This document shows, piece by piece, positions 30,446 through 62,800 of a stretch of DNA of 64,000 nucleotides. A model generated the notes under the pieces. That model was not told the DNA's origin. It worked only from the letters and a program-made list of their open reading frames with translations, and did no database searches. Origin of the DNA: Lingula anatina (Eukaryota; Animalia; Brachiopoda); assembly GCA_051362555.1 (NCBI GenBank), contig CM120646.1:9982001-10046000 (forward strand). Reading direction: 5' to 3'. The translations under genes and the position numbers were made by a program. Position 1 is the first letter of the stretch, and every line of letters starts with the position of its first letter.

Positions 30446-30642
30446 ATAATGTTGATGTTACTTATGATTTCCATGACTTTCAAAGCTACTTACGAAATGT
30501 GAACAAAATCACTCAAATGTTTAAGGCGATTGTTTATTGCACCACAGGATTTTCTTTTAAAGCATTCACTATAAACATTCCAAACCTGGAAGAACTACAT
30601 GTAGTGTATCTAACCAACATGTATACATGAATAAGCGTTTAA

Positions 30643-30977
30643 AGGGAAACTCCATGGGATGTAACCACCAAAAGGATTTTCCCACAAAAATAAGCAATTT
30701 TCATGTACTCAGGAATTTCTCACCTATCTCTCTCTGCACTTGGATTCGAACTTTAATTGAATTAATAAAGGTTGATTTAGTTTAAAATGACTGGTCAGTC
30801 ATTATAACCAACAAGAATCTTCCTTACCTTTGATGGAAATGTCAACATTAGGTATAAAAAAAGAAGAAAAAACTATTTTAGGGATTAAATCATTTTAAGG
30901 TGTATGGAAGGTTTATAGGAAGCTGTGGTTAGCAAAAATAAGCATTTAGAACATTTTCAAACCCATGGAGTGTACCT
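30643..30977. mobile_element. TTAA-target (Kolobok-like) MITE, copy 2
   Basis: TTAA|AGGGAAACTCCATGG ... CCATGGAGTGTACCT|TTAA. Core CTGCACTTGGATTCGA is shared with the copies at 11616 and 44478. Confidence 0.75.
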
Positions 30978-33597: not shown

Positions 33598-36500
33598 TAA
33601 TAAGTGTAGCGTAATACTATCTCTCCTCCTTTTATTACACAAAAAAATGGAAAAAATGAAATATCAGCTTTCACATGGTATTTTAATTGTTCAAACACTT
33701 TATTTTACAATAACTCAGCTAATTAATGTTTAAAACTTCCATGATAACTGTGAAATCCACTATTATTCATGTCATAGAGACTGTATACATTACCTCTTTC
33801 TTGCCTCAAAATTTCCACGGTTCATCTGAGATCCAAACAATACCAACTGCCATTTCTCAAAGATGCCAAATGGAAAGATGTGGTTTCCTGGTCAAAAAGT
33901 AAAGTTTCAGATATGGAAGAAATGTAAGATCAATTAGAATTTTCTTAAGACTCTTTACCCATACATAATTATTTAATTTAATATCAATGTTTGTAAGTCA
34001 AAATCAGCATTTCAATAAAGAGAAACACTAATATACTTCTTAATAATCTTAACCCACAAATATTACAGACAATATTCAACTAAATATCGATGTATGTAAT
34101 TCTTTATTAAGTTGAAATCAGTATTTCAATATGGATTTAGACTTATAACTTCATCTTAAATTAGATTATATATTTGAAGTAAAACTTTCCAAAAGATAAA
34201 CCAACAACTTTATAATAACACAATACCATGCTTATCACAGCAATTGGAGAGTTGAGGAGGTTAAGGCCAATAAAACTAATAGATCAGATGAACTGCCTCT
34301 TGACCATGTACCGCCCACAGGGTGTGGTCCAAGGGTATCACAACCAACAGAGATAGTTGTTAAGTTATTAAGTGTTCAGAGTCGGCTGATGCAACAATAA
34401 AAATGCACCGATGCCCACTAATGAATATTTTTCACGGTACAGCACATAGTGAAAAATGAAAAATGAGGTGTGACTATTAGGTGTACTTTATAGTAGCACT
34501 TCAGTTCTAGCCCAACAACTTATAGCAGTCAGGACACACTAAAATTTTCAAGATGTCTCAAGATGGTGAGTTGGTTCCTAACAGAGGAGAAAGTCCCTAA
34601 ACGACATCATAACCCAGAAAGTTAAAACCCAGGTCGTCGCCTCCCAAACAGTAGATATATACAACCTACAGAGCATGATAGCCGCCAATCTTAAACAATT
34701 TTCCGAGTCCATGGACTTAACACAAAAGCATATCCCTAACATAGAGGACAAAGTATCCTCTTCTTACATGTATAGAAGAAAGGGCAACAAACAATAGTAC
34801 AAGGTGAACGATCAAGTCTTAAGGAAGCTAAATGGCGCTGACGAAATCCTAAGATGCAAAAAGGCTGCAAACAACATGTTGGAGAAGGCCTGGGAGAAAA
34901 TCTGGGAAGGTATACGGTCTTATTAGCCAGACAGAAGCTTATAAAGATAGCAGATTCCAGCTCTCAAGGTTAGCTTGTTGTTGAAGAGAACAGTTCAAAG
35001 CCCGTTGCAGATGGCTCAGAGGACAAAAAGCGCATCCTTAAAAAGCACATTGATGCCAGACAGAGCAAGAATGAAACGATAAGTAGACACTGTTATACTC
35101 ACAAATGCATGTTTATCTTGTGACAATAAATGTTCAAACAAAAGTGAAAGTAAATGATTAGAATGTGACTTTGAGCAGTTATCCCAAACAGAATGTTTTG
35201 CATAACAAAATTGATTTTTGTTACCCGTAGGTAGATTTAAGTCATACATTTCAAAATGGGTTGAAACAGTGGCTTGTTCCCACTTATTGGAAGTTATTGA
35301 ATCAGGTTACAAAATTCCTTTTAAAGATACGCCTGAGGTCTTTCTCAGAAAAAACAAATCAGCCTTGGAAAACGCTACTTTTATATCCAGCGAAATTACA
35401 GCTTTGTTGAACAAATGTTGCATTTCAGAGGTACATTTTCTGCCCCACGTTACCAACCCTTTATCCGTTGCTTACAGTAGGTCCGGTAAACCTCGATTGG
35501 TATTAGATTGCAGGTACATCGATCCCCACTTATTCAAATTCAAATTTAAGTACAAAGATTTCAGCGTAGCCAGAGATATATTTAAGAAAGGGGAATACGT
35601 GTTTTCATACAATTTGAAATCTGCTTATTTCCACATTTTTGTTTTTCCCGATCAACGCACCTTTTTAGGATTTACTTGGATCATAGATGGGAAAGAAAGA
35701 TCATTTGTTTATAATTCACTTCCATTCAGTCTAGCTACTTCTAGATTCATATTTTCTAAACTTATAAGGCATCTTGTCAAATACATCAGGTCGAAGGGAC
35801 ACAAAATCATCACGTACTTGGAGGATGGGATGGCCCGGAGACCGCAATTTTTCTAGCGCTTGTCAGTTCAGCAATTTAATCAGAGAAATTTGCAGTTCTG
35901 GGCATTTGGCCCATGGGGTAAGTGAGAATATTAAACTGCATACATGTGGCCATGGTCCATATGGGGTTAACCTTGCAGTAAATGATGCAGGCTGACATAC
36001 AAAACGTGGTCCTGGCAACAGAAAGCAAGGTTAACAGGCCAGGATGTTTGATACCTTACTTTGTACTGTACATGTATATGGTGCTGACCTCTATCTGTGA
36101 CCTTCAGTTTCCAAATTCCTACTGGGTTCTCACTCCAACATCTCACTGTGCTGAATGTCCAACCTTGGAAACCATCTGATGAACTGAATAAAAAGAAAAA
36201 TGAATCAATTATACTACATATACATGCATTTAAATGAGGTTTAAAATGCTATTTTCTAGTACCAAAAATCCAAGCTTAAAATACGAAAATCCAAATTACC
36301 ACTGTGACACAATAATTGTTTTTAACAATGGAGACAGAGATAGATGAGGGAGGGGGGGAGAACAGGGAGCCAATAATGAGAGTTCATTTAGGTTTCAAGT
36401 GGCACGTACAAATATAGAACAAGTAAGGTGTTATCAATACGATTATTCATGGTTCCAAGGAATTGTACTTAGCTGATATTTTAGTGATAATAATCACTTA

Positions 36501-39500: not shown

Positions 39501-41799
39501 CAATCATCCCAGCAGCCAGTGGGGCAGCAGCTGAGGTCCCGGAATGTTCATCAGTGCAACCAGTGCCTCCACGCACCATCCAATCTGTTGTCACCTACAA
39601 TATTTTGCATCAAAGTTAGTTCAAATTTTATTACTTTTTTTACAATATCTTAATATCCTGTAACTTAACCTAGTCATTTGTCCTCAAGGTATATTATCTG
39701 CATTTAAAAAAGTCTCAACATCATATCCTCTATGTCTACATACCCTGCAAAACAAATCAGACCTTAAAAGCAATAAACCCCCTCAAATGAAGGTAGATGA
39801 CATCAATATTTCCTCCTGACATGTACAGGAAGACATGCTGGTCTGATTGACTGTGCAGCACTGTGTGCACTAAATATAAAATATCCAAATTCAAGGGCAG
39901 GGGCAGGTTAAGCAACATATGAGGGGAAGGAAAAATTTCTTTTCATATAAAATATCCAACTTGGCAGGAATACCCTTGTTAGAATACCTTCAAGCTTACT
40001 TATTGAGCTTAGTTTGATCAAAGGTCTGTAATTTATATGTGGCTTTAAATCCAGTTAAATATCAATTACAATAGATGGAACATATTACTTGTCATAATAT
40101 TTAGTTTTATCTTCACCCGAAGATGTTTCTGACTCATATTGTGTATCTCACCACATTTCTCAAGCCAGGCCCTCCACTGCTGAAAGTGACTGCTAACATA
40201 GAAGCACATTCTTCTGCATAATAAGGCATGTTCCCCAATTCATCAACAGCCCCTAGATTACAACAAGGAGATGTTAAACTTCCAATTTTCTATAAATTTG
40301 TTTCTTCAAGGTTAAAAGCAGATCATACTAAGATTCTCATATTACATAAAGTATGGAATAATAATATTGTTTTCATTAAAACTCCTTAATGTCACATACC
40401 CAGTTTGCAAAAAAAAACAACAAAAAAAAAAAACAGGCTAAAACATGCCTTTATATAATACTGGTTTTCATCTATATTCAACTGCAGGGACAGGTCGACT
40501 TAACATTTCAAGAGAAGAAGAAAAACATTTTAAGGAAAATTTGATTTGGCAAGAAAACCCGCCTAAGGATACCTTTAAACATACTTAATACCCTTAGCAT
40601 ACACTAATAATAAGTCACCAAATAACTTCACCCAAATAAGAAATCTAAGACTTGCATTTTGTGCATCATTCTACAAACTAAGTACCTTATATTTATGGGT
40701 ATATGTCCTTAAGTCTGCAAGTAAATGGATTTGAAATGCAATATTTCTGCCTCAAATAAGAAATCATGTATTTCTGAACATAAGTAATGGGCAACAAGGC
40801 TGTTTAGAAATACCTGTACTTTTTTCTGCCTAATAGTTCCCAACCTACCAATAGTAACAGTATAAACTGAATTTGCATAGCCATCAAAGTTGCAGTTGTC
40901 TCCATGGAAACCACCATTGCCACTGGCAACCACATAGATACTCCCATAGCCTTGACGACCAAAGTTGACACCTTTTTCCATAGCAGTTTGTGCCAAGATG
41001 TGGGGGCCATCTACTGTTTTGCCATCATCATCTGGACCCCAGCTATAAGGAATAAACACAAAAAGGCATAAGAACTAAATTTGACAGATATAAACAAAGG
41101 GTATGTCTTAAGGGGGTGTAGTTGGGCATACAATGTAGTTTGAACAGTGGCTTATTTTTCAAAACTTATCAAACTATCACTTTACATACCAAAAGTAAGA
41201 TAAAGTGGGTGTTAGCAATGTAAAAAGTGCACCCTTTTCAAGACCATTCCCAGACCCTATCGTACTAACTGTGGATCAATCTATCTCCGAGGATTCTTAA
41301 TAAATTGCAATCAACTTAAGCGGCTTGGATGTCTGTCACGCCTACTGAAGCTGCTAGGGGGTAATTAATGATCATTTAGCAGCTTCAGTAGGCGTGAGAT
41401 TGATTGATCCTGTTAGATCCTGTTAGATCGATCTAGTTATGGGAACCCAGTCTTAGCTAGGTTAGTTGGTGGTAGTATACGGTCACATGGGCTGTGAAAT
41501 GCTAGTAGTTGATGCTGTCTCAGAGGTCAGGGAGCTGTCAGATCCAGCTGTCATTATTCTCATGTAAGAACATTTCCAAATTTTGAAAATGGACCCTGGT
41601 CATTCATGTTTTTACCCCAGGTGTTAAAGACAGACGTTGCCTATGTATTTTATTTAAAAATAGCATTAATTTTACAAGGTGGGCAATTGATATTTAAGCA
41701 TCAACAGCATATTGAGACCAAAGATTTTTCATTATAAAATTTTAAGATCCCACAGGCACTATAATATCCTTTTAACTCTAGGTCAAGTGTGTGTGTGTG

Positions 41800-41843
<44 letters not shown>

Positions 41844-44800
41844 GCCTCTCTTCTGGTCCTCAAATCAAGTTCGGTCCCTTGGTTTAAACTGTTTACCAGA
41901 GGCTCTGTTATGGTCCTACACCTGTTAATGTCCATCATGACGTGTTCTAACGTGTTCCCCAAACGTGTCCTTGGCTGACTCTATTATGGTCTCCAATATT
42001 TGAGGTTTAAAACTTTGAGAGGCTACCAAAAAACGTACGTAAACTGAATGTTGGAAAGAAATGCATTTCAATTATTTAAATTGTATTATATTTGCTATAA
42101 TATTTTCTCAGATTTTTTAAAGAACACAAAAGTTTTGCTGCGTGACTACCTTTAGGATGCTTAATACTACTACAACATTTATGGCGTTCTCTGCTTCTTG
42201 TTTGCTTCTTGTTAGGCCTACATTCGTGGGTATTTGTGTGCATGTGGGGGGGGGGGGCTACTCACTCACTGTCATGATCGTGCAAACTTTATTCCGTTTC
42301 AAGTTATTATAAGCTCTTATTTTCATATGGACGCGTTTATTCCCGTGAATTTCCTAAATGTCCACTGGACTGTCAAGAACTAAAGTGAGTCAGAGCTTAA
42401 ATCAGAACTTAGTCCCTTATATAGGCACAGTATAATGGATTTTTACTGCATACGTTTTATAAATCTATTAATACTGCAATTTATGTAAAGAGCTCCTTAT
42501 GAAGGATAGTCTAGCTACTTTATTCATTTACGCATTTTGTTTCAGATTTTTTTTCGATTTTCAGGATTTAGGGTTTAGGTATGGTCACTATAAAAATACC
42601 AAAATGTAGGCGTTTTGTGCAAGTAGTAGAAATGGATTATATTATTTTCGAATCAGCGGATCTAAAATAAACAATGTTTATTAATAAGCGTGCAATATAT
42701 TCGTAATTATAGCCTGTTTGACTGCATTTAAACTAAGACGCAAGTGAACATAATGAGTGTTTGATTGACGGGGCTGGTTTAGAGATGAGCTGCATACCTT
42801 GTTGGTATTTATACCTAGGCTTTCACAAGCTATATGTCCCATATCATTCGCATAATGTTTAAGTGATGTTTTGCTACTGGATGACAACTTACATGTAGCA
42901 TCCCAATTGTATTGCTTTAGGAGCGTACAGTGAAGGGAATATCATGAAATCCCAGTGATCTGACCAAATACATTGTGGAGATTTGAGGGACTAATGGTAG
43001 AGGACAGATCCAGTATAACTAGGTAGTATAAGTATGCATACCAATGCAATTTACTGTTACACAACGCCGTACTCCCTTGGGCAAAATTAAAGGCTAACAT
43101 CCCCGTTTCAATTTACCACTTCAAGGGAAAGATTTAGAGCAGCGCCAATACTAATTAGAGCTTTTAAGCAGATTGTTGGAAGATTGTGTTAATTCGTTAC
43201 ATCTAAGCTTTGTCAGGGATTAATTTTTGGTTGGGGTTATGGTTTATGTTTAGTTTAGTTTAGTTTATTTCACTGTAACATATGCATCCACTTGTGTGGA
43301 TGAAAATGACAATATGAATACAATTTATGTGTCGATTATAATTGGAATGCCTTTGATAATTTTATAACCAAGACTTATGGAATAAATAATTTGCTAAGTT
43401 TTATAATTATGTGTGAGGACGTGGGCGAAAACGGGAGTCACCCTATTGAACGTAGGTTGGGAACTGATGAATGAAATTAAGTAAAATTAGTTAGATTTAA
43501 TACAGATTAAGAATTTTAGACGCATTTTTGTTGCTGCCAAAGATAGCTTACGAATTATGGATTCTAAACTTGTGTGTTTGTGGGAAACTTTTAGTTTTAT
43601 TTTGTTCTAAGGTTAAAGAGACGAGGCCTAAGAAGCCTATACGCGTTAATTCTCTAATGTAACTAAAATTTTCAAATAACGATTTTAAAATGAAAAAGCT
43701 GTTAAAATAAGCTTTTTTTTTAGAATATCACGTTCGGTTAAGAAGATACCGGTAACATACGCCTCCACAGATCTGCTACCCCCCCTCCCCTTCTTAACCT
43801 GAAAAAGTGCTGTCCTTGAAAACAAGTCTGATTTTACGGACAAATTCTGAATACCTGATCTTGGGTTCACAGAGCGTCAGCTGGTTATTTTGAAAAGGGT
43901 ACAAAAATATAAATGAATGTGTGATGCAACAATAAATAATTGTGTAAATAATGTCGTCTAGTGAGCCTACAAATGTATTCATATCATTCAGTGCTCAATA
44001 AACTTATTGTTTTTATTATAAAAATCTATGGTGCAAATTGGCTTGACGTAAAAGTAGAACTAAACCGAATCTCGTTATACCAGTTTGGATTTAACAAAAT
44101 GGACATACAAATAAATGCAGTAGCTCTGTCAACTGTAATTATTTACACGACTTGCAAATGGACTGGACATATGTGGCAAACACTGACCACACCATATATA
44201 TGATCTGATAGCGATTTGATTTATAACCAACGCAGCAAAAATTCTTCTGACGTGAGCCAGTCTTCAGAAAGAATAACAGTGCAGGAAACGATAGACGGAG
44301 AAAGAAAAAGCTGGTACTACGAATTACAAACGCCAAGATGAATGCAGTTCTAGGACTGTTGACATTTCTTTGTATCCTATGCATAGCTGTTGAGTCAGCA
44401 GACGAGGTAAGTTTCTTTTCGTGACTTACCTACACTGTAAGTTTTGACAAATGAAAAAAAATTGATTCAAATGTAAAAGGTACACTCCATGACATTTAAC
44501 CGACAAAGGGGATTTCCAGGAAAATAAACGATTTGCTCGTACTCCCGAATTATTAATCTTTCCTTCTCTGCACTTGGATTCGATTTGATCAAATTTATAA
44601 GGATTGGTTTTCACCTTTAAAGGAATGGCCAGTCATTAAAGCAGCGCCCACTTCCCCATTTCCAAGAGAAATGTCAACATCAGGTACGGGTCAAGAGAAA
44701 AACAAAAGAGATTAAATCACTGTGTGTAAGATTTGTTAGAAACTATGGATGGCAAAATTAAGCGTTTTTGGGGAATTTTCAAAGACATGGAGTGTACCTA

Positions 44801-47800
44801 CGCTGTGTTATACTTGTTAAGGAATGAATGCAGTTATTAACGAGAGAGAATAATTTCCTTAACAATTTAGTTAGTTGGATATGAGTTTGCTGTTATTGAT
44901 ACATGTATTTGGAGCAAATTGGTGTAATTGTATTCATATTTAAAGGACCATTACAGACACGAGAAATATCCTTAACACGCCCAATTCTAAAATAACTGTG
45001 GTTCCAAAAGTACCACAGCATTAAAAATTGGGAATATCCTCTAGCATAAAATTCAATCACTCGTAATCAGTGCAAATGGAAATTATTTAACCCCGCCCTG
45101 GTTTTTGATAATTTACAGCAATTCAGCGCAACACAGCACAATACATTTTGAAAAAACGAGTCCAGTCACAAGTAAACAGGGTCATACCCAACAAAATAGG
45201 CTGATTCTAGAGGGAAATTTATAAGTGATGTACTCTGATGTACTTGTATCATGTAAACATTATATGAGACGCCTGCAATGTGATGTGAAAACACGGGCAT
45301 CACGTTTTAGTAAGTGGATGTCTTAAAAAGTCGGTTTGACTTTTATGAATAATTCAGACAAAGTTTATGGTTAAAAGCTTTCAGCTTAGAATAAGAACGG
45401 CTTAAGAATTACCAATTATTAAAACAAAGACCATCCTGACAGATGTTAATATTTTTGAAGAACTTGTCAAAAAGCCGCAACATTTTAGTTAGACTACGGC
45501 CACACACACACAAAAAAAAAAAAAAAATACAGACCGAAAACCAATACTAGCCTATTTAATTTATTGCCAGATTAATATCGATAAATTGCTGCAACGATGC
45601 GTACATCTTATCATCACACGTTTGTTGCTCAATGAAGATGAAGACTCTCTTATACACTAATTCCAGGAAAAAAAACGCTCGCTTGAATTGCGAAAAATAT
45701 CACGTTCCAACACGCGCTTGCAAGCTAATGAAAAACATTCGACATGTGCATCAGCTTCGTGTTCAAACGGCTGTGACTGAGGATTATTGAGGCGACGGAG
45801 AGACCTGTATAATTTGCTAATTAAAACATAGAAAATAAGATTAAGATCTCGGGATGCAATCGGCCTCTGAAGTTCTCTTACACAATTAACAACGGTTGTG
45901 TCATGAAAAATATATTGTAAAAACTGTATGACATCTGCTGAGTGATTGAAAACACATACATAACTAGAGGATCAGAGAGGCGATACCGCCTCCGAATATT
46001 GTACCACCAGCTGGAGCAAGCGCATTCGTATAGACCCCCACATACGCAAAATAAGGGACACAGCCACCAGTCTTATGCTTGACAAGCTGTAAAAATGCAA
46101 TCAACAAGAATTTTCAAAATACGCAAAAAATATATAAAACTTAAAATGGTACAATCAAAGTTAAGTTCATTGTAAGGTAGGTCAAAGGTCAATTTCAAGG
46201 TCACAGTAAATTTCCAGTATATGACTTCCTATTCAACTTCAATAGTAACTATGGACCTATCTCTGCCAGGTTTGGAGTTAAAAGAGAAAGAAATTAGCAG
46301 AGTTCAGTTCATGATTATAAGTAGGTCAAAGGCCAATTTCAAGGTCACATTTAGATTGCCAGTATATGACTTCCTATTCAAGTTCAATAGTAACTATGGA
46401 CCTATCTCGCTAGTTTTGGAAATAAAAGGGAACCAAAATTTGCAAAGTTCAATTCATGATAAAGAGTAGGTCAAAGGTCAATTTCAAGGTCACATTTAGA
46501 TTGCCAGTATATGACTTCCTATTCAAGTTCAATAGTAACTATGGACCTATCTCTGCCAGGTTTGGAGATAAAAGGAAAGCAAAATTTGCAAAGTTCAATT
46601 CATGGTGTAAAGTAGGTCAAAGGTCAATTTCAAGGTCACAGTAAGATTGCCAGTATATGACTTCCTATTCAACTTCAATAGTAACTATGGACCTATCTCT
46701 GCCAGGTTTGGAGTTAAAAGAGAAAGAAATTAGCAGAGTTCAGTTCATGGTGAAAAGTAGGTCAAAGGTCAATTTAAAGGTCACATTTAGATTGCCAGTA
46801 TATGACTTCCTATTCAAGTTCAATAGTAACTATAGACCTATCTCTGCCAGGTTTGGAGATAAAAGGGAACCAAAATTTGCAAAGTTCAATTTATGGTGAA
46901 AAGTAGGTCAAAGGTCAATTTCAAGGTCACAGTAAGATTGCCAGTATATGACTTCCTATTCAACTTCAATAGTAACTATGGACCTATCTCTGCCAGTTTT
47001 GGAGATATAAGGGACTAAATGTTATAATTTCGGAGTTACCTTAATGTGCCATAAATTTCCTACAGAAAAAATTAATTAAAATAAAGAAAAGGTCATTTTG
47101 GTCAAAATTCTTGAAATGGGAGGTGCTCTGAAGTTCCAGAAGTTCAAATTTGATGAAATAATGTCATTTTTGACCACAAGTTGTCTGCTTTGCCAAGTCT
47201 TATGTTTTATTTTTCCGGAGTTCAAAATTTATTATCCATTACCGTACTGCACATTTTGCTTTCACCACCAATATGTACTTTTTGATACAGCGTAACTCGA
47301 AAACCGTATGGAATACAAAAAAACCGAGACCACCTCCAGTGTTGGGCTTTACATGCTCTACAAAATGCAAAAAAGAATGGGTCTCTAGCATTAACGGTTC
47401 CCGAATTAGAGACAGTTTTCAGTTTCGGTATCTTATGGCCGCTTCACCCGTGAAAATGCACCGATTGACCCCAAATTCACAAAGGTGAAAGATGACCTGA
47501 AGGGTAACATTTTCCAATAATATTATTGGTTAAGTCTGTGTGGTGTCTGAATAACAGCGCAAATAAATTTTTTTTCGAAAAAAAATTCATTTTTTTGAAA
47601 ATTTTTGCCCGTTTGACCTTGAAATAAAGGTCAAAGGTCAAATCCAAGGGCATATTTGAAATCTACACATATGACTTTTGGAAAGCCGTCTGTAGAAATT
47701 TTTCCCATAATTCCTTCCGTAGGGTAGATAATTAGCATTTAATTTTGCCATTTTTGGACAAGGGTGCATTGCAATGAGTGCCACACCTAGACCCCAATAC

Positions 47801-50800
47801 CGACAAAGCCCAAATTTTACGTGGAACGAGTTGAGATTATAGGTGACCTAAATCCAAGAGATGGGTATGGGGGCCCTTACCGTCTAGGAGGAGAAGCGGT
47901 AACGGTAACATGGCGGCGGAGCCGGCGGAGCCGGCGGAGCCGCAGGAGCCGGCGGAACGGACCGGACTGGACTAAAACCATGTGTACCGCCAGCGCTAAC
48001 GCTGGTGGTACAATAAGTGGGGTGTCTGTAATAATGTGGGATCAAAAACTTGGTATTTTGGGAGGTTTTATTTGGGAAGTTCAAAAAGATATGTATGATA
48101 GATATTACAAACCGAAAATATAACCGAAGATATAACTTTATACAATATACATTATAAAGAATATACAAGTTCGATGGATGAGCGACTTTGTGTATGTCTA
48201 ATTAATCATTTGCGTTTTTTCATAACCTTACTTATAAATTTCCCTACTGCAGTTGCACCCTGCGCAGAGGGTGGGTTTAGGCTGTTCTGACGTTGTGTGT
48301 TAGACCCTGCAAGTTAACCTAGTGATTTTTTTCGATTTCGTGATGATTGCATTCTAAGAAGAAATTAATTTTATCCTCTGCCTTGTCACAGTAGGGGCAA
48401 TTTCGGTCGGATAGTTGTGTTTTGTTGTTTTTATGTCGCCCTCTTTCAAATTCTAGATCTTGATCACTTATTCGCATTTGTGTGAAAAGCTTTTTTCGGG
48501 TACGTGTGTTTCAACATACTTCATGGTATATTACCACTTCATGGGATAAATGCTCTGATTTTACTGTCAAATCGACTTTATAGGATAAAATGCGACTTCA
48601 TCTTCACATAAGATATCACCTGCGTGCGCGTGCGCCTACATGGGATAATGGTGAAAAAGTACATGTTGTTGGTCCACGTTATGAGAGAGAACGTTTTTGA
48701 AAAATAAGGTATTTTTACATGTACTGTAAATATTATCCAAAATAGGTAAAATGTACGTTTTAATTTACTTGCATGACTGAATATGGTTTCTTTAGTGGTA
48801 TTGGATGCATGTTTTGAGCAATTTTAAAATACACAGGCATATGTAGGTGAGGATCCAGTATTTATAAAAATCAGTACATTATGGGAGATTATGGTCAGCT
48901 TTGAAGAAAAGGAGGTTCAGACCCCTTGGCCCTGGGCCCTCACTTCCCAGATCCGCTTGATACATAAAACTAATGGATCAGGTAAACCAGGCTATGAAAA
49001 CATAATTTACGCGTAGCTTACTGGATTATAAGATTGATTAATAAACAAATTGGAATCAATTATTAAAGATATATAAATAGATAATAGTGTTGAAAAAGAA
49101 GCAGAGAAGGTACATAAATATAATTGTGCACTACAATCGTCTTGTTCAAATCGCGTCCCACTCTGAAAAGACTTCTTTTTTCCATGAGGAAAGACACGCA
49201 GGTGTAATGCTTTAGTTATGTCCCTTTGGTTTCCGAGAGGATCTGTTCTGGTCCTACACCTGTGAATGTCCATCATGACGTGATCAAACGTGTTCCCCAA
49301 ATGTGCCCTTGGCTGGCACTCATTTGACCCGAAAGTATTATTTGCGGCACAGTCTGCATTTGGAAACCTGTTAATAAGGGGTTCGGAGGGGGGGGGGGTA
49401 GGCCTACTTGTTGTTTAGCAGCCTAATTAAAGCAGTTGTTCTGTGAGATCAACAGCCTTGTAGATTGATATTTATTCATAATAAATTGATGAACTGAATT
49501 GAAAAGTTAAGCTGCTAAGTAACCTTGTGTCTCAAGTATATTGCTTAGGATTGCTTATTTCTTTTGTGCTTACACCTCACCCGAGCACTTGTAATTGATA
49601 CCCTGTTACTTGGTTTTAATGTGAAAGATAAGAGCGTAAATTAACTACAGTACACTACAGCCTGGGGGTCATTCCTTAACATAGTTGTAAAGCCGCATTT
49701 TGCAACCAAGGAAGTACGTGAAAACGCAATCTGCAACTGTAACGCATTTAGCAACCAATTTCTTTAAAGTAACTGGAACTATTTGAAATAATTTAGAGAT
49801 AGAATCGGGATGTGAACGGGGTTACCTTGACACCATGGGCTGAATATGGTGCCTGCCCCCGGGGTGGATGATTTATATTTTATTCATATCACAATTTCTG
49901 TCATCTTCCCCAAGCACACAACAATCAGTTTTTTATTGGATCCCTTAACCTACATTCAGGCACTCAGCTGTCCAGTGCTGTGTGGTGTCCTTTTCTTTTT
50001 CAAATTACTTAAGAGTCCATTCACAATCATAATGACAGTTGTAGAGCCGCATCTTTTAAATGCAACGCATTTTGCACCCAAGGAAAGTCGTAAAAATGAG
50101 TTTTGGAACTGCAATGCATTTTGCAACCAGGATATTTTGTAGGCACCTTAAACAGTTTGAAGTACGGGGCGTGGTTGTCCCATAGGGTGGTTGGTTGAAA
50201 TTTTTACATCGTAATTTCTGCTATGTACCCGTAGAGCTGTAGTACCGTGACGACCTTTGGGGGGTATTTTTTTTTAAATATTTATTACTGTTATCCTCTA
50301 TCCATTATAGTGAGGAACATGAGGCGCCGGGGATATTTAAACTTGCCATTAGGGATATGCACGTGTCCTTCGGATTTTTGGTGACTATGGGTGTTGCCTT
50401 CCCTAGGGGTGGTTGATTATTATCTTTATTATTTTCTGCTATATACCCATATAGATATTTGGGTTGAGGAAACTAAAATGTCTGGGTGTGCATCGGCAAT
50501 TTTTTTTATTGTGACCTGGGGTGTGGCTATCCCTGGGGATGGTTGACTAATATATTACCGTAATTTATTTCATCTCCTCCTAGACCATTCGAATTAGGAA
50601 CATGAGTCTTTGGTGCATGAGTGGGCTACATGGGAATTTTAGTGTGACTGTCCCTAGGGGGTGGGGTGATTAATGGTTAGTAAAACAATGAAGCTGTTTC
50701 CATGGATTGCACTTAAGTCAGATTCCTTTCAGAGTTGGACCGAGCCAGCCAGTACGATGTGTGAATCTGAAGGCGTTAGTTAGGAAGGAAGGGGAAATGC

Positions 50801-53800
50801 AGAGAAAGCAGCAGATAGTACTTAATAATTTTACAGACCTTAATATAAGTCGTATTCTTCAATATAGGCCAAGTTAATTAAAACCCATTCAAGACACCAT
50901 ACTCGCAGGAATCCTAGAGTCCAAGTCCCGTTATTCTTTAACATAAAACACACATGTTAATTACTGCTCTTAGGTAATAAACATGTGTGTTTTGTGTTAA
51001 GACACAACAGCAGTTCAACGCTAGGATTTCTGATCTAGTGTGTGGGGCCTTGAATTAATTTTTAATTGGATTCCCTGACCTATATTTACGCATATGGCTG
51101 GAAGTCCAATTAGTTCTGTATGTGCATCTGCTGTTCTCTACATTTCTTAAGGACCCATGCACATTCATTAAAAATGACTGGTTCATCAATATCCGTTTCA
51201 TGTTCCTTAATTTTTAAGGGTATAGATGGCAGAAATAACGATGTGAATCATTCACCCCCCGGGATAGCCACACCTGACATATCATAAACATTCCCGGAAA
51301 CCTATGCATATGCTCAACGGTAGGCTTATGAGCCCGGGAGGTTTCATGTTCCTAACTGTAATGGCTTAAGGGTAGAAGCACGAATAACGATGTAAAATTT
51401 AAAATCAACCTCCCCAGGGACGGCCATACCCAATGTCACAAAAATCCAGAAGGACCCATACACATCCCCAAAGACTGTTTTTTCAATCCCCATAGCATTA
51501 CGTTCCAAACTTCATTGATCTAAGGATGGATAGCAGGAATTACAATGTCAATTAGACTCAACCGCCCCCCCCCCCCCCTCCAAAAAAAATTCGAAGTGCC
51601 CTTCCACATCCAAAATGGTATGTAGCCACGTTTCATGTTCCTAGCATAAGTTCCTAACTATGATGGTTTAGGAAGTAACAATGTGAAATAGATTATGCAT
51701 GTATTTTAATTGTTAATTATTGACCAAGAAAAAATTCTGGTTGCAAAATGCGTTCATCTGCAAAAATCCGGCCCTATTTGTAAGCCTGTACAACCGGCTC
51801 TTCACCAGTTTTATGAATCCCCAGTATTTCATTCTCCCCGACATCTATCTGAACAGTTGACCGTTTCAAATCATTCAGATTTCAGACTTTCCTTAAACCT
51901 TAAACCTTTAACTTAAACTTTAAACCTTAAACTTTTTCAATATATAGGACAGCGGGTCTACATTTTTAAACGACCGAGATATTCTCGAAATATTATGTTG
52001 CATATCAAGCAATAGCTTATTTCGACAGCTGTTATTGCAAGTCATGACATTTATGTCATAGTTACATAATAAATACTTCTATATCACGAATAATGGAATA
52101 GACTGTTTGTTAAAGTAATGTACACCTAATGTGCAGCGAAATTAAAACCTCTCTGCCTAGTAGAGTTCTCGTGGAAAGACATACTACTGTGTACTAGCCA
52201 CATCTATAAACCTGCGCCGTCAATCAAATCACAAATGGTCAGCTTTATGTCCTAGTTTAAAGGCAGGCGATGTGTTTATTTATAGACTTCGTTTGTCTTA
52301 TACATGTAGTGCCTTAGACCCGCCATGATTCAACGCCCAAATATTGTCAGTTTTTAATCGTCCTGAAATCTGAAAAATCTCAAAACAAAATGGGTAGCAA
52401 AAAAAAAAAAATAATAATAATAATAAAAAATAAATAAATAAAAAATAAAAGCTGTTTGCTTTCCGTCACGGAGCTCTTGAGATATTTATAGAAGTTAATC
52501 TCACGGGTATCTTCGAGAACATCTGCAAATAACAGCTTCATTAAACTCCAACGAGATAAAATACACACTATCATGTGAGTGAGTAATGTTACTCCACCCC
52601 CACCCCCCCACTCCATTGCAAATACACGCGTCACTCTCGAAATCATGGTCTAGAATGAAACATCATATCGAGCTTTACGCCTAATTTCCACATCCAACCA
52701 GAACTGAAACATGTTTGGATACAAGCACATCTGTAACGATAGGTTTATGAATCCTGGATGTTTTCCAGGGTATGAAGCAGAAATTACGATGTAAAATATC
52801 GAATCAACCATCCCCAGGACGGCCATACCAAAAGTTTAATTTTTTTTTTTTAAATAGTAAAATGATGGACCCGTGCACATCCCTAATTATGAGTTTATAT
52901 ATCAATGACAAAGACCATTTTTAGTCCATAGAAATATATCTGAAATATCTGAAAGGACTATACCGACCGGACAGGAGGGTCTAAGTAATTATAATTATAA
53001 TTATAAAATTTGGTTGAAAAAAATGAAAAGAAAATTAATTTCAACATTTAATTTTTTGTAGGAAAATGACTGGAGAAAGAGACCAAGAAAGGTTGGACAA
53101 AGACCAATTGATGACACAGTGTATGAAATCATGTTGAAAGTATTGCAAGGAAAATTGTCCTTTGCGAATATACCCAAAGCTACTCGTTCAAGTAATGACA
53201 GGAAGGCATACAGACAACTAGCCAGCAAAAAGTTCAAGCTTGGAAGTGTGCCCGATCCCATCACATCTCGTGAGGAGCAGCGGATACTACTGGAAAAAAA
53301 TGGCACCATTGTCCTCAGGGCATCAGAGGTGAAAGCAGTTGTGCAGAAAGCATCTGCGCTCTCCAAAGGCGAAGGGGCTAGAAAGCTGAAGTTTAGGATT
53401 GGCTCCGTGGTGACAGGGGTGGGAAAGAGAAAAATCCAAGAAGTCCTTAATGCTGACAACCGGCAGCAGCAAAGGAATCCTAAATTTATGAATAAGGCAC
53501 CTCTTCGACCAATCAAATCAAATATGGTTATGGATCGCCACCAGGTGGATTTGGTAGACTTGTCGTCCATTGAAGTAAAAGATGGCGAGGAAACATACAA
53601 GTGGATTCTTTCCTTAATGGACATTTTTAGTAGATATATTTGGCTTCGGCCCTTAAGGTCCAAATCATCTGATGAAGTTGCTGACACCTTAAGGGATATA
53701 TATAATATATTTGGGCCCCCGAGAATATTACAGTCTGACCAAGGTGGGGAGTTCAAAGGAGCTGTAACAAAACTTTGCAAATCACTAGATGTCAAAATTA

Positions 53801-56800
53801 TCCACTCTTCGGCGTATTATCCACAGTCGCAAGGACAGATTGAAAGATCACACCGCACATGGAAAGAAAAACTTCGATATGATCTGATATATGGTGAGAC
53901 GGGGGTAAACTGGGCCAGAGAATATCAAGAGTACGAACGCCTTTATAATGAAGGTCCCCATTTGGCTCTCGGTGGCAGATCCCCATTTGAGGTTTTTTAC
54001 GGCAGAACCAGTAATCGGGTTTCTAACAAAGACGCTGAAGAATACTGTAAATGTGAGGAGAAGGAGGATTTCCATTCTAGTGTGGACGACCTTGTAACTC
54101 ATGAGGATGCTGTCCAAAAGATAAGAAGCCAAGCCCAAAAAAGTACCGAAAAAGCAGCAGAACAGATGATAAAAAGAAACCTAAGAAAAAACCCGCCTTC
54201 TAAATACCACATAGGGGATAATGTTCTTGTTTCTGTTGATCGGAAAGACAAAAGGGTGCAGAGAGGAGGGCATGGCATCTGTAAACCGAGGGTGGCACAA
54301 GGTACTGTAATTATCACCGACTATGAAACACACCGTTACAAAATTAAAGTAGAAAACGAAAAACCAATTTGGTACCGAGTGGACCGGATAACATCATTAA
54401 GTAGGGATGTCGAGCAACAGCGACAGAAAAAAGCCAAGCTAGGATCTCTCGTGTGTCTATACAGAAACTGCCGTGCTCAAAAAAACCGAAATTGTAAAAA
54501 TAAAATGTGCGATAGATGCTGTCCAAAACATGGACTTGATAAATGTCACTACCACACCAAAGACATTTGGGGTCAACTGAGGGCTTTAGAACAACACGAA
54601 GACGCCGTATCGCAAAGTATATATGACTGTCTAATACGGAATGCTCTGAGTATGGGGTTAGTTGAAGTAACTGAAACTCCTAAAGATGGTAATTGTCTTT
54701 TCCATTGTTTAGCCCACCAACTCAATTTAATGAAAAAGACAAAATACACCCACAGGGATGTGAGGGAACAAATTGTTAATTTTTTAGTCAAATATCCCAC
54801 TAATGCACACGGGGTGCATTACAGTAATTTCGTTCCCGGTAATGATTGGGATGGTTACCTCCAGGGTATGGCAGGTACATCCTGGGGTGACCATATTGTG
54901 CTGCAGGCAGCTTCGACATTGTACGGTGTAGATATAATGGTGGTGTCTAGCTTAGGCGAAGAAGCAACTCAGTTTTTGCATTCCACGACTGAAAATGGTG
55001 ATGTCAGTCAACCGAACATAATTATTCTCGGACATCTCGCAGAACACCACTATATTTCACTTCAGGCATTAAATTTTAGCACACCCAGCGGCAATGACAG
55101 TAGCTCCAGTATCACAGCAGATGTTACATCTATTAATGAACCTGGTAGTTATAATTTCACTTCGTCAAAAACTGAATTTGATGTTAGTTATAACGATGTC
55201 AAGGAATATTTGTGTTTAGAATTAGAATCAAAAAACGAAATAGATATGCCTTTCAATAATGCTAACAGTCACAGCCCGGATGAAAATGTTGGAGAGAATG
55301 GGGTACCCCTTCATAGAAATAATGCTCGTGTTGTCAAATTCGTGAAGTACATGGAGAAAAGGGGTAAAACATTCAAGCGACAGATGATTTTGGGTGCGTC
55401 AGGTGGTGGAAGTGAGTTTTTGCTCGTACCGGACGAAGATATGCTTATTTTTGACGATACATCTCTATATATGGACTCCTCTATTAGCACAAGGTTAAAT
55501 GATGTATGCTTTCAGTACTGGTTGTATTATGTATACAAAGGTGACAGACAAGGAATTAGAATAGACGATGATGGTACAGTCAGTATGACTCAAATGCAAG
55601 CTTCTGAATATGACGAATGGTTAACTTCAGTGAAGGGAGAAGTTTGCTATGAATATGGTTTTAAATCCATTTAATTGCTTATAATTTAAGTCATTTAAGT
55701 GTATTTTTACACATAACCCATGCAATTTTTGATAATATCGTTGTATGAAGTGTCTGTATGTGGATGTCTATGTGGATGTCAGAGAATGTCTTTAAATGCT
55801 TTCTTGTTATACAACATGCAATGTTCGCGAAAACTGCAGCAACAACGTTCCACTGAGAGATCAGTTTTTGGATGTATAGTTTTACGTAGAATGTAATTTT
55901 TTACGATAAAGAAACTTAGGCTATGTAATTATATAACTAGAAGTATATAATTAGAATATTGTTCTTAATTTTAAGTGTTTGTTAAAGTTAGAAATCATTA
56001 ATTTTCATAGCAATGTCACCAGTACGCCTTTAGTTCACTTTTACTTTGAACAGTATTAATGTCGATTACATCATATTTAGAAAGTTGACATTTGCGTCAG
56101 ATGAATGCATAACATTTTATTTTACACATGGTTATTGTACATTTGGGATCATATCCTTACTGATTTTACGACATGCGCTACATCGTGATTAGTAGAAGTA
56201 GAAACGGTAACGACATTTTCTCAAGAGTACTTGTGTAATCTTTTATTATACTTTCAATTTAATCTTTGTGAGTTGAGGGTGTTAGTCTTTAATGACATGA
56301 ATTAGTGTTATTAGAAGTAGGATTGTGGTGTTTTCATAAACGTGTATAAGGCATGTTATTTATATTACATAGTTCACTTGTCTATTGCTACATGTATATT
56401 GTATTGTTCAATGACATCACTTTGCCTCAAGGACCCTCAAGTGCACCTATCCGTTATCATAACGAATTGCATTGTAATTCAGACCTGGGACCAGACCAGT
56501 TTTATGTCAAGAATATATAAGGTGAACATGAATACGCAAGAATATAAGAATTGCTACTAAAACCCCCAGAGTTATTAATTCGCGTCATACACCTGTGCTG
56601 TACATGATACATGTATGTAGTACTGTAGGAATATAGAATAAACGATATGCCGCTATGTCTGTTTTCGTCTTATAAGATTTGATGATGTTTTCGTTTCTTC
56701 CAAATGTTGTCTTCAACTGAACATGATAATGAATAAATCCCTTCTCTTTCCACTTTAGTAATATATTTTTCTACTAGCACTGCTCATCTGAATTAATTTA

Positions 56801-59800
56801 AAGCACTTTTAATGTTATACAGTAGTAAAAAAAAAAAACTTTTTACATCGCCCCAACCCAATATATCGTTTTCCGCACTGTGGGTTCAACTACAGTAAGT
56901 TTTTGCACGTTTTTTTCCCGTTGCTATCTTTGTGTCAAACTTAATACTAGTTGTCAACGCTGCGGAGTCAGTAAAATGAAAATATGCGAGTATGAAACAA
57001 AACGATTAGCCAAGAGAAATTGACTAACTTGCTAAATGATATGAGTCCCTGGCCTGAATTTTGATCAAACTTACAAACTGACCCCTGGAAACCACAAAAT
57101 TTTCTTTCATGCCCAAAATCTGTGAATTTAAAGGGATAATAACTCTTCGTATGAGACCTATATTTCACAATAAAAACCTTGTGAATAACTCATAGAAATA
57201 TAATATATTCTGTTTTACCACAAAAACAGCAGTTATAGCTTTTATTCTGATATTTGAACTTGTCTTTAGACCACGTGACCTCCATTGATGTCTATACTCT
57301 GTTAAAATCTCTTAAGAGATTTTAACAAAAAAACAAACTTTTTAGAAAAAAACCAGGGACTAACTTTGAATGTAAAAATGGATTCATTAACCATTGGTAA
57401 GTATGGGAAAATTGTTGTTTACTCCAGAAAAATTCATTTTTTGGCCGAAACGAAGAGTTATTATTGCTTTAAATACTCGATCCCCACCATTAAAAGTGCC
57501 ACCGACCCTCACATTGACTGCCTCTCTTGTTATAGAGCACAATTCAAATAAATTTAAAAGAGACAAACCTGGCTGTTACTACAGAATCGGGATTCTTTAA
57601 CATAGATTTTTTGTCTCGACTACAGGGACGCCTCAATTTCCTTTTCGCCCTATAAATCTTATTCAGTTGAATGGTCTTTATCGCAGCATCTATATTTAAG
57701 TTCATTAAAAACCACAAATCAAACGAATTGTGTGTACGCGCCGTAATGAGCATGATCTTTGGATGGTTATTTTAAATAATCCGATGTTGATAATTTCGAA
57801 TCCTATACATTATAGTAAATCTGCGTACATGGAAAGCATCAAAACAGACTAAAAGGCATTTTCGAGTCGATCATTATACGGTTTTATTTGCATCTCATCT
57901 GTAGCGACATTAGTTGCCAGATTATGTATGAGAACCACGAAAACAGAGCACTCGCACCAGACACGGGCATTTAATTTTGGTTGGCCCTTACGGGCTTGCA
58001 TTCGACCGGAGGCAGAGTTGTGAATCAATCTACAGTATATTATTTTCAGTTTATACAAAAGTTACCTAAGTCCCGCATAACGCTATCTAAAAAATTTGGT
58101 CACTTTATGACCCTTTAAAACACCGCTACAGATGTAGACACCCCAACCCAATTAAGTTCGATGTGAGAAAACTTTCAACAAAAAGGGATAATGTGAGCCA
58201 CATATATTAAGATAAATATCGGAATAAAAATATGACACGTTCCATTAATTTTCACTGGTTTATGTCACTGTACCCTCTAATAGGGAAAGCCGTCAGCAGT
58301 TATTTAAAGTAATGTGACACATTCATAAAAACTTTATGCAAAACGTGAGCAGTTGGGATAAGTTAATTTACGCTCTCATTTTTCATATGAAAAAAAAAAT
58401 GAATATTTATTACAAGAGTTCAGGGTGGGAGGGGGGCATAAGGGCATAGCAACTAAATTATGTTATGAAATAACGATTTGAAATTTAAAAAAGGTCAAGT
58501 TGAACCTTTCTACTCATATACTTTATCATGGTTCGGTTAAGAAGATATATACCCCCCCCCCCCCTGCCCACACTTATTTCAACCTGTAAGACTGGAATGT
58601 CGGTAGTCTGGCTCGGGCAATAAAATCTTACTATCTCCACATCTGGTTTCTATCTAGCGCGTTCAGAGCTTCAGAGCTTAGGACAAACATATTGCTCCTC
58701 GGAGAGGGGGAATAGAGGAACATGTCTTCTCAATATGGAAATCTATATATTTTTGGTAATTTCCTTTGTAACATTTACGAACACTGTAAAATACCCTTTC
58801 TCAAATTAATATGATGTTCACACATTTCTGTAAATATCCTGAATTGAAATACTAATTTTAAATGTCAGATTTATGACGAGGGAGAGAGAGGTCAAGACAT
58901 TCAGTAAATGTCCCCAACTAGGGGAGAGTGTTATAAACTAAACACATCTTGGCAATAACCCGTAGCCAGTAAGACTGCTGATTGGTTTACTTATTATGAT
59001 AAACATTATTGTTTATATTTTTATTAATATCAAACAATTTTACTGTTTGCAGGTATACCTGTTTGGAACCTGTACTCTGGGCCATATAATAGCAATGGTG
59101 CAAAATAGTGATATTCTTCAAATATTAAATTTTATTAAATGGTTGAATACAACATTAGTTATAGAACAGTAATAGAATTCAGTATAATGACATGTAGGAA
59201 GGTGACCATATTGTGCTGCAGGCAGCTTCGACATTGTACGGTGTAGATATAATGGTGGTGTCTAGCTTAGGCGAAGAAGCAACTCAGTTTTTGCATTCCA
59301 CGACTGAAAATGGTGATGTCAGTCAACCGAACATGATTATTCTAGGACATCTCGCAGAACACCACTATATTTCACTTCAGGCATTAAATTTTAGCACACC
59401 CAGCGGCAATGACAGTAGCTCCAGTATCACAGCAGATGTTACATCTATTAATGAACCTGGTAGTTATAATTTCATTTCGTCAATATATGCCCGGAATTTT
59501 GTCGGAGAGGGAAATTTCTCGAGTTTGTTCACTGCCCTGTGAAGCCATATTTTGTGGCCTGAGATGCTGTATCCGTTACTTCGTGACCTGACCTGTCAAA
59601 AGCACGTCTGGGCGCTCTTTTCATCTTTCAATTCTTCCACATTAATCAAGATACGGAGTATCAATTACAAGTGCCCGGGGAGGGGGGGGGGGAAGAGGGA
59701 GCATGAAGGGAATAAATAATTATAAGTAGTATCCTTGCGACACAAGGTTACTCTGCAATTTATATCTTTCCATTTATGCTGTGAAATAATAGCCAGGTAG

Positions 59801-62800
59801 TCCGTTGATCTCGCGAATCAACCAAATGACCGTTAGTTGAGTTGCTTAAGTGCAAGTAATCAATCCCCTCCCCTCCCCCGAACGTCATACTGGCAGGTTT
59901 CCAAATGAAGACTATACCGCAGAAAAAGTTTGGGGCCCAAAAGAGAGTCAGCCAAGGACACGTTTGGGGAACACGTTAGAACACGTCATGATGGACATCA
60001 ACAGGTGTAGGACCATAACAGAGCCTCTGGTAAACAGTTTAGAACCAAGGGACCGAACTTGATTTGAGGACCAGAAGAGAGGCTTTACATGTGTGTGTGT
60101 GATTCAAGAAAAATTAATGTAATTTTCAGGAGGATTCCATCAATCAAAGCACAATCACACAAATCTTGCAACACTAAAGCCAATATAAAAAATAGGAAAT
60201 TTTATGGCAATAAAACTCCATGAACTACATAATAAAAAAGGTCTGCTCACCTGCAACTGTAGATGTCATTGACTTCCATGTTCTTGTTGAATGCTGTTGC
60301 TTCTAAGCTGTCTGTCATGGGACCATCCAATACTCTGATACCTGAAACAATTACTGTGTTGTGACATGTAGAAGATAATACTATGCACTTTAAATACAGA
60401 CTGTTATTTAATATAATATTTACATATTTTTCTTGTAATATCAATGCCATAATCAGTCTTTTATATATCTAAAACACTTTATCTATAGGATCAGAGGCAC
60501 CACCATCTTTTTCTTCATAAAATAATTTGAAGACATGACAGAGAAAAAGATGAAAATTTAAATTGAACTTGTATATCTATATTTGAATCACTTATAAATA
60601 TTAATCACATTTTGCTAAATTTAAGGCTAAAATATCAACTAGGCAGCAGACATAAATAACACATGTGATGGAAGCACTGAGATGAAAACTTCTAAAAATG
60701 ATGAAACAGTCTAACAAAAGTGCACGGAATGTTTTGTGTCAATGCAGATGCAATAGATGTAAACTAATGCTTTATAGCAGCATGACCAACATTTTTAATC
60801 ATCATGATCAGTTTTTAATAATCTACTCACATTAATTACTGTAGACATTTAGAAAATGTAGTAAGCACTGGACTTTAAACCACAGCTATTTGCCAATTTG
60901 TGAAAAACTTGAGCACTATTTAAGTTCGTGGACCACACCTACCAATCAGAGAATAAAATTGCTCAATAGCCCAAAAACTTGTGGGCTACATAACAATATT
61001 TTTAACATATATAAAAACATATTGCAAAAAATAGATATAATAATAATTAATATAATAACAATGATTAGTTTATTTAAAATCATAGCAACCAAAAGGTTGA
61101 AGTTGTTAACAAATATGAGTTCAAATAAAAATTGAAAACAGAAGATTAATATTAAGATCATATTAAGTTCAAAATAAACACAGACCTCTAAAAGCTAGTT
61201 AAAGAAAATGGGATAAAAGTGTTTTAGAATCTTTCAGTCTTAATTTATGGCACTCAGTAAAAATTTGGATTGGTTGCTATATCATAACTTTCTGTAAAAT
61301 CTGGTAGTAAAAAGAGAACTTAACTTATACCTTTTCATTCTTAATGTTCTGAAAGAAAGAATTCCATAGTTCTAAGTGCTGCTTTTCAAAAATTAACTAT
61401 AAATTCAAATATTAATTTTTTTATTAATCAAATCATAGAAATAGAATCAAGAAAAGGTTTTGCTCTTAATAATCATCAAAAATGACAAAAAACTCTCGTG
61501 CTAGTAGAACTCAAAACACCTGCACACAAAGATGCTATATGCTACCTGTTGAGCTGTGGCACCCAGGTACTAATCCAGTACTTCAAAACATGTACCATTA
61601 GCATTAAAAAAGGTCAAGAGCTGAGGTCATGGTGCATGCTGCACAGGGCTTGCCATTTACTGCATTTTACTGGTATAAATAGGTACAAGTGGTAATCTGT
61701 GCCATCACCAAAATTTGGTGGTCAGGTCCGCATAAAGTACAGTATCTCACAAAAAGAATCAGAACAATACCTCCCGAACTGTGAGCCAGAAAGTGCTAAT
61801 AGACAGTCATATAAAATCATGCAAATAAACAAACAGGAACACACTTTGAAATTCCCAAAAAGGGATTTTGAGTTACAGAGTTTCCTTAACTAGTGCACAT
61901 TAACAGTGCCAGTGCACAAAGTATAGTTCTTCAAAATAACATCATGATAAATAGCAAATTGTCATAATGTACTACAGACTACTATAATTGTGGACATTTG
62001 ATGGGACTGATGCTCAAACTACAGGGCACATAATTTCAATTGTATAAGCTCTCTTACTAAAGGTTAAAGTGATTTTCTACAGAATCTACCTGCCAAAATG
62101 AATTTTCCCGAGGTAAAGTGCAATTTCTGTACGCAAGCTTCCATAGATCCTGGGAAGATGCATGTAACTACAACATCAGGTATGCTTCATATAAACATTT
62201 ATTCAGGGTGTAGCATGTATTATCTTTACTGTCTGAACAGAGAAATTCAAGAAGTTTTGCAGGATATAAATATGACTGCAGAGGATTTTCAAATGTGTGT
62301 AACTTTAACTATATGGAACTATTCCCACAGATATTTAGATCGATCTATCTCCCTGGGGAGTCTCACTAACTTAACCGGCTTAAATTTCTGTCATGCCGTT
62401 AAGGGGTAATTATCTTCACCCCCTAGCTGATTCGGTAGGCGTGACAGACATTTAAGCTGGTTAAGTTGATAGCAATTTAGTGAGACTCTCCAGGAAGTTA
62501 GACCGATCCAGATGGATCGATCTAGGCATGGGAACCTAGTCTATGAAACTTCAGGTTTAATTGTTTCACTCACCAGCAACCTTGGCTTGAAATGCCACTC
62601 CCACTGCACATACGGAGTTAGCAACTGCCCCTATCTCCCCTGCACAGCGTGTGCCATGATGATTTTTATCTGGAGGAAAATCAACTTATACACAAAATAA
62701 CTTCTTTTAATGATACTATTCCAATAGCAGTTAAAATGCAAGGCAGTAAAGTAAAAGGCCCTTTCTGACATTTAAGTGTAGTGTTCTAATTTAACTTGAC

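Follow-up and report, generated by a model that had tools for sequence, protein, structure and literature searches.

The 64,000-nucleotide stretch of the Lingula anatina genome analysed here (hereafter the window; contig CM120646.1 of assembly GCA_051362555.1, positions 9,982,001 to 10,046,000) contains an 18,252-bp DNA transposon spanning 41838-60089, with both terminal inverted repeats (TIRs) intact. Its transposase frame joins an integrase to an OTU-type deubiquitinase and probably begins with a small upstream exon predicted to encode a cleavable signal peptide (Table 1). DDE transposases are taken to be proteins that pass from the cytosol to the nucleus; here it is tentatively proposed that this one enters the endoplasmic reticulum (ER), loses its signal there and partly returns to the nucleus of the same cell.

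Table 1. Features of the transposon, its inferred gene and the surrounding host gene (window coordinates).
Feature	Position	Strand	Details
Left TIR	41838..41996	+	tip TGTAA, (TG)n flank; 160-column match to right end, 96%
Right TIR	59930..60089	-	160 bp, (TG)n directly after
Candidate first coding exon	44338..44406	+	23 codons, open; signal peptide predicted, cut after residue 20; phase-0 donor
Inferred GT-AG intron	44407..53061	+	phase 0; 8,655 nt, swollen by nested repeats
Proposed mini-exon	52925..52978	+	54 nt, open, phase 0; weak splice sites
Main exon	53062..55674	+	870 codons, stop-free; basic patch, integrase, Cys-rich segment, OTU, C-terminal domain
Basic patch	53074..53091	+	RKRPRK; 6 K/R among first 14 residues
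DDE catalytic core	53548..53844	+	D163, D226, E261 all intact
OTU-type deubiquitinase domain	54682..55053	+	PF02338; D542, C545, H663 in place
C-terminal domain	55294..55656	+	~120 residues; shared with close relatives; confident model, pLDDT 85
Dispersed MITE-like repeat	44476..44799		inside inferred intron; ~70% matches
Tandem array	46156..47014		inside inferred intron; ~6 units, each 145-146 bp
Relic end of related element	49203..49628		own TGTAA tip; 70% to right subterminal 59633-60035
Internal copy of transposase frame 54886-55168	59201..59483	+	283 bp, 99% identity, right arm
Host intron	41043..60250	-	19,208 nt, phase 2; neighbouring exons join in frame
Host gene exons	~40780-41042, 60251-60345, 62570-62690, 62890-63000	-	furin/kexin-family convertase

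The main frame has Pfam matches to rve (PF00665, 2e-12) and OTU (PF02338, 1.2e-9), and its structure model, with a mean predicted local distance difference test (pLDDT) of 70.6, aligns over more than 400 columns with the integrases of foamy virus and Ty3 (E 2e-17 and 5e-16, respectively). The basic patch is likely a nuclear localisation signal, lying near the N-terminus of the mature protein. The C-terminal domain is also present in P0002, P0005, P0006 and the P0058 family; it has no Pfam family and no fold match among atlas, PDB and viral structures. Between the integrase and the OTU domain there is a poorly modelled Cys/His-rich segment (54457-54560), 34% alike over 38 residues to the closest family, which is possibly a metal finger in a family without the H2C2 motif.

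The frame is shut upstream by a TAG at 53059-53061, which is itself part of a good phase-0 acceptor, and the 23 codons preceding the first in-frame ATG (53131) are coding. Both points had been made in an earlier reading of the sequence alone, and the second is borne out by residues 1-42 of the frame, which match the closest family at 48% starting at residue 1 (E 2e-8). For these reasons the frame needs a spliced upstream exon. Translation from ATG 53131 was rejected, since the conserved first helix, opened throughout alignment A1 by a motif at residues 16-21, begins upstream of that ATG; the Met itself is not conserved.

The candidate first exon begins 2,500 nt inward of the left end and has the features that the sequence-only reading had described, with GCCAAG preceding the ATG in a Kozak-type context and GAG/GTAAGT at the donor; it has A, not G, at +4, and no ATG is present in 44262-44337. 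The predicted leader includes the start Met, a 16-residue apolar h-region, small residues at -3/-1 of the cut and then acidic residues, and it receives 3.38 on a home-made heuristic that combines hydropathy with the -3/-1 rule and is not SignalP. On an equally home-made splice scorer, with frequencies taken from recall, donor 44407 ranks first of 658 GT sites (+ strand, 41838-53061) and acceptor 53061 first of the 490 AG sites between donor and acceptor. Over two stricter signal-plus-donor thresholds this is the sole such exon in the window on both strands, and in 300 third-order Markov nulls of the region such an exon appeared in 13, 2 and 0 at the loose, middle and observed thresholds, all picked after the exon was seen.

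No other plausible downstream exon for this leader was found between the donor and 53061, the next-longest phase-0 open stretch after any AG having 110 codons and a poor acceptor score. Nested repeats do occupy much of the intervening 8.65 kb, as had been noted, and the intron was likely once much shorter, because a dispersed repeat, a tandem array, a relic transposon end and inverted motif arrays lie inside it. The mini-exon that had been suggested as an inclusion is unsupported, with an acceptor outside the top 15 and a donor outside the top 12. Judged by these sequence features, the junction of 44406 to 53062 is quite probably real. Four of nine RNA runs, compared with 52880-54000, gave 0, 0, 5 and 3 reads, all partial and 90-95% alike; the eight reads come from runs X7 and X8 and lie over the most conserved core motifs (53526-53867), which suggests transcription of a related family in those samples.

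At E 1e-10 the homologue searches gave 44 proteins, and at 1e-30 there were 737 cluster representatives, the best 150 of which were used; the named relatives derive from abalones and corals. Among 185 distinct homologues, the N-terminal profile matched in 141 and the domain start is kept in 77, including 40 with at least 15 residues ahead of the N-terminal domain. Assigned by score plus eye, 19 of these long leaders are signal-peptide-like in one frame (three of them identical), nine are acceptor-like, as in intron read-through, and 12 are not hydrophobic. As a control, 14 read-throughs of pyrimidine tracts in the window were scored, and one came out as a signal. The signal-bearing P0013, P0014, P0021 and P0023 are each encoded in a single frame, on contigs 0.8-2.5 Mb long, and several signal-bearing proteins retain the leader across cluster members. 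Homologues with a hydrophobic leader, the place where the sequence-only reading had looked for corroboration, therefore exist.

A second kind of support comes from a metagenome scan, in which at least 79 loci were found, L001 and L002 belonging to the transposase family and L003 being more distant; viral and prokaryotic collections gave distant integrases or nothing. L001 has the same layout, with two introns in its N-terminal part: the ATG at 687 opens an exon of 687-719, followed by an intron of 214 nt, an exon at 934-1147 and the remainder at ~1740-3951. Its first exon holds 11 hydrophobic codons and a donor that ranks first among 48 upstream GT sites, and the phase-0 intron splits the predicted signal, the next codons finishing the apolar run and adding an A-S-A site.

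In quick trees, the second of which leaves out 10 long-branch or near-duplicate rows (five short proteins are in neither), the family splits into two clades with support 100. One is rich in signals; in the other, that of the window protein, most starts are acceptor-like or short. In P0001, the closest family (56% in the core), a pyrimidine tract with an acceptor lies no more than one codon from the position corresponding to 53062. Within the same 18-row subgroup (support 89), P0010 has a full signal peptide and its near-identical kin P0009 has an acceptor at the same place. Both branches of the deepest split include signal-bearing members, with few documented cases close to the window protein. 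Two further features of the relatives were observed. Ulp1 and OTU protease domains occur together on one transposase in P0003, P0004, P0007 and P0008, and the Acropora millepora gene models P0308 and P0310 (1127 and 1200 residues, in the 90% cluster of P0008) have an unrelated N-terminus, possibly a host fusion, a captured gene piece or an annotation join.

Loss of buried N-glycosylation sequons has been reported for proteins recruited to the ER (PMC5562741; this and the other papers cited are drawn on in part). Shuffling predicts 54.8 sequons for the 15 signal-bearing homologues, which have 31; the 10 homologues without signal have 33 where 29.0 are expected, and 79 mostly prokaryotic insertion-sequence-type frames have 96 where 107.7 are expected. 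Six control motifs show no depletion over the whole length. In the helices and strands of the integrase, sequons occur at 4 of 137 Asn in signal-bearing proteins versus 10 of 69 in nine relatives without signal, P0208 having been dropped as acceptor-like (Fisher p 0.006), and in the loops at 11 of 171 versus 11 of 86 (p 0.10). All four sequons of the window protein lie outside modelled helices and strands. The deficit in signal-bearing relatives suggests, but does not prove, real passage through the ER.

Here it is proposed that the small upstream exon is spliced over the 8.65-kb intron to the integrase-OTU exon, and that the message would encode a transposase of 893 residues starting with a signal peptide that is predicted to be cleavable. 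The signal would take the transposase into the ER and then be cut off, a step that is quite probable if the junction is real. The substrates of integrase and OTU domains are nuclear or cytosolic, so the enzyme must get back from the ER. Part of it could do so through abortive translocation or export of the ER-associated degradation (ERAD) type; the OTU domain would then strip ubiquitin, letting the enzyme escape the proteasome, and the exposed basic patch would serve as a nuclear signal in the same cell. Once ER entry is granted, this return by export, deubiquitination and basic-patch import is rather more probable than the opposite. The ER detour may limit and delay the dose of active enzyme. 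Precedents exist in Ty1 Gag, which enters the ER lumen and for which return has been proposed (PMC3945221), and in the hepatitis B precore protein, 15-20% of which is back in the cytosol and nucleus after signal cleavage (PMC9300162). Because of these precedents and the location of the substrates, ER entry and return is favoured over the other readings, and taken as a whole it falls somewhat short of an even chance.

Several points weigh against this proposal. None of the sparse, partial RNA reads covers the acceptor or shows a joint or a loose end, so that the order of leader, basic patch, integrase and OTU put forward by the sequence-only reading stands through the homologue leaders and the layout of L001, and the splice itself was not seen in reads. 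The splice and signal scorers are our own heuristics, and no spliced form of P0001, the closest family, turned up in the searches made for it. The clade of the window protein (30 rows, support 100) has one convincing signal peptide, that of P0010; several of its leaders, including those of abalone gene models, are not hydrophobic. Many short-leader rows begin with a Met directly ahead of the domain, so that not every relative has the signal. The sequon test was post hoc and uses secondary structure as a mere proxy for burial; its whole-length deficit sits in N-X-S (0.37) and not in N-X-T (0.92), in the C-terminal part the reversed control is low as well (0.67), all but one of the 15 signal-bearing rows belong to one clade, and the window protein, with 4 sequons versus 5.4 expected, offers a count too small to inform. 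A composite history of the element is allowed by the relic end at 49203, which may be a nested insertion or else a trace of such an origin. Finally, same-cell return and secretion are inseparable on the present evidence.

This last point concerns the exported transposase that had been suggested before. The leaders and sequons support export or ER passage, and the same evidence serves a reading in which the transposase is secreted and other cells, for example germ cells or neighbours, take up the enzyme, so that their copies are mobilised in the nucleus. Secretion is the default fate of a protein with a classical cleavable signal, and the basic cluster that follows the signal in many relatives could help uptake. 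This cluster is, however, equally common in relatives without signal; no translocation domain was recognised, the C-terminal domain being matchless, a 100-kDa enzyme would need a route of escape from the endosome, and no precedent appeared in the literature searched. Secretion with uptake is therefore judged unlikely, as is its broader form, in which a widespread animal transposon lineage would have transposition driven from outside the cell and its own deubiquitinase would shield the re-entry to the cytosol.

It is also rather doubtful that the 44338 exon is a captured or orphan piece of a secreted-protein gene, or the left-arm leader of another element, and that the first exon of the transposase is free of signal. 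The 8.65 kb between exon and frame, the relic end that sits in it, the lack of a junction read among sparse RNA reads and the 12 of 40 long leaders that are not hydrophobic fit such an origin, and related integrase-type transposons capture gene fragments (PMC6839031). On the other hand, no competing exon has a donor or signal of similar quality, the leader has no other downstream exon to join, the chance level is 0-13 of 300 nulls, and the match to a trait of the family (19 of 40 long leaders, P0010 and L001) would have to be coincidental.

A signal-bearing product that is lost in the ER as a sink, with the active enzyme made by leaky scanning, from a start further downstream or from a different first exon, appears improbable. 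The A at +4 of the 44338 start, the in-frame ATG at 53131 and the existence of intact-looking relatives without signal are compatible with it; however, a start at 53131 cuts into the conserved first helix at a Met that is not conserved, and selection against sequons in folded parts presupposes that the ER-exposed molecule must still work. More improbable still is an uncleaved anchor tethering the enzyme at the ER or nuclear envelope with its catalytic part facing the cytosol or nucleoplasm. Some relatives do show 17-19 apolar residues and then basic residues, which is the pattern of a reverse signal-anchor, but others show -3/-1 sites and no more than 10-13 apolar residues, and a cytosol-facing enzyme has no need to lose sequons. 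In the window leader the 16-residue apolar run, the -3/-1 site and the acidic residues after it make a cleaved signal fit better than an anchor, and the membrane tethering raised in the sequence-only reading is unlikely on the same grounds. Domestication, raised there as well, finds no support, with ends intact at 96% and related families of 33 to 275 near-identical members.

The element lies in a (TG)n tract within an intron of a furin/kexin-family protease gene on the opposite strand; this intron would measure about 950 nt if the element were subtracted, instead of its present length. A target-site duplication of any even length is compatible with the ends, because (TG)n is present on both flanks. 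The host gene has a Peptidase_S8 domain and furin and kexin matches at 1e-21, and is here presumed to be PCSK7. Inside the inferred intron of the transposase, the repeat resembling a miniature inverted-repeat transposable element (MITE) has further copies in the window at 11614-11940 and 30641-30977, and the relic end has no partner end in the window. In 50180-52813 a short motif recurs in both orientations round a hairpin (50906-51032), likely a further nested element. The internal copy of the transposase frame is recent, and likely arose by a template switch during repair. Elsewhere in the window there are units of 176-199 bp in inverted arrangement, forming a foldback-like array (28000-30300), a 213-codon frame (35215-35856, +) with no Pfam match at 0.01 that by its look is presumably a decayed piece of reverse transcriptase, and an IgGFc-binding-domain gene (PF17517) with long exons (4754-7277, -).

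A search of the literature on transposase signal peptides and on Ginger2, with Repbase entries, subscription journals and bioRxiv supplements outside its scope, gave no report of such a leader among the matches listed. The term 'signal peptide' is absent from the sections of PMC6839031, PMC10045372, PMC10871703 and bioRxiv 2021.09.26.461848 drawn on here, as are 'signal' from those of PMC3575427 and 'OTU' from those of PMC10045372. If true, a conserved secretion signal together with a trace of ER exposure would indicate either an undescribed route of control, by ER detour and return, or intercellular transposition, and both readings matter for the way in which DNA transposons keep damage in check and gain access to the germ line. 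The trait escapes gene callers, because in many copies the signal is on a tiny exon, here 8.65 kb off.

Among known transposons, the DDE core is of the same type as that of Ginger2-1_CGi, a mollusc Ginger2 of Repbase, with 45 of 83 residues identical by eye, the Repbase Ginger2 families being likened by core rows alone (PMC10045372); by eye, no other row seen in Figure S1 of that paper is close to the window core. The definition of Ginger2/Tdd includes a 4-bp (or 5-bp) target-site duplication and an H2C2 finger ahead of the core (PMC2836005). As in the part of that description used here, the window element has an integrase-like DDE enzyme, TGTNR termini and TIRs within 50-180 bp, and a GPY/F motif was likewise not seen by eye in alignment A1. 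It differs in that none of the 20 rows of alignment A1 has the H2C2 finger, in that its single insertion in the window is in (TG)n and not in an RTATAY target, and in having an OTU domain, a length of 18 kb and a predicted signal peptide. Because the end features agree while the H2C2 finger and RTATAY target are lacking, the element is, on its sequence, classed as Ginger2-like and not filed as a member.

With Ginger1 (PMC2836005) it shares a C-terminal OTU domain, introns in the transposase gene and TGT termini, but it has no CCGG/CCGT target and, of the YPYY, H2C2 and GPY/F motifs of Ginger1, H2C2 is absent and GPY/F was not seen by eye; moreover, the coral-type relatives hold OTU and Ulp1 together, whereas Ginger1 is reported, in the sections drawn on, with one or the other. 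IS3EU/GingerRoot elements of animals and plants (PMC6839031, PMC10045372) are likewise large, with an integrase-related transposase and TIRs of 100-150 bp. They have mostly TA..TA and rarely TG..CA termini with 6-bp duplications, while the window element has TG..CA. Identity with GingerRoot was rejected, as the core motifs differ by eye from five rows of Figure S1 (PMC10045372).

For the proposed route, the nearest likenesses are Ty1 Gag (PMC3945221) and the hepatitis B precore protein p22 (PMC9300162), in which targeting to the ER is followed by the kind of return to the cytosol or nucleus proposed here. Those are capsid-type proteins of elements with an RNA intermediate, whereas in the Lingula element the protein concerned would be a DNA transposon's catalytic recombinase.

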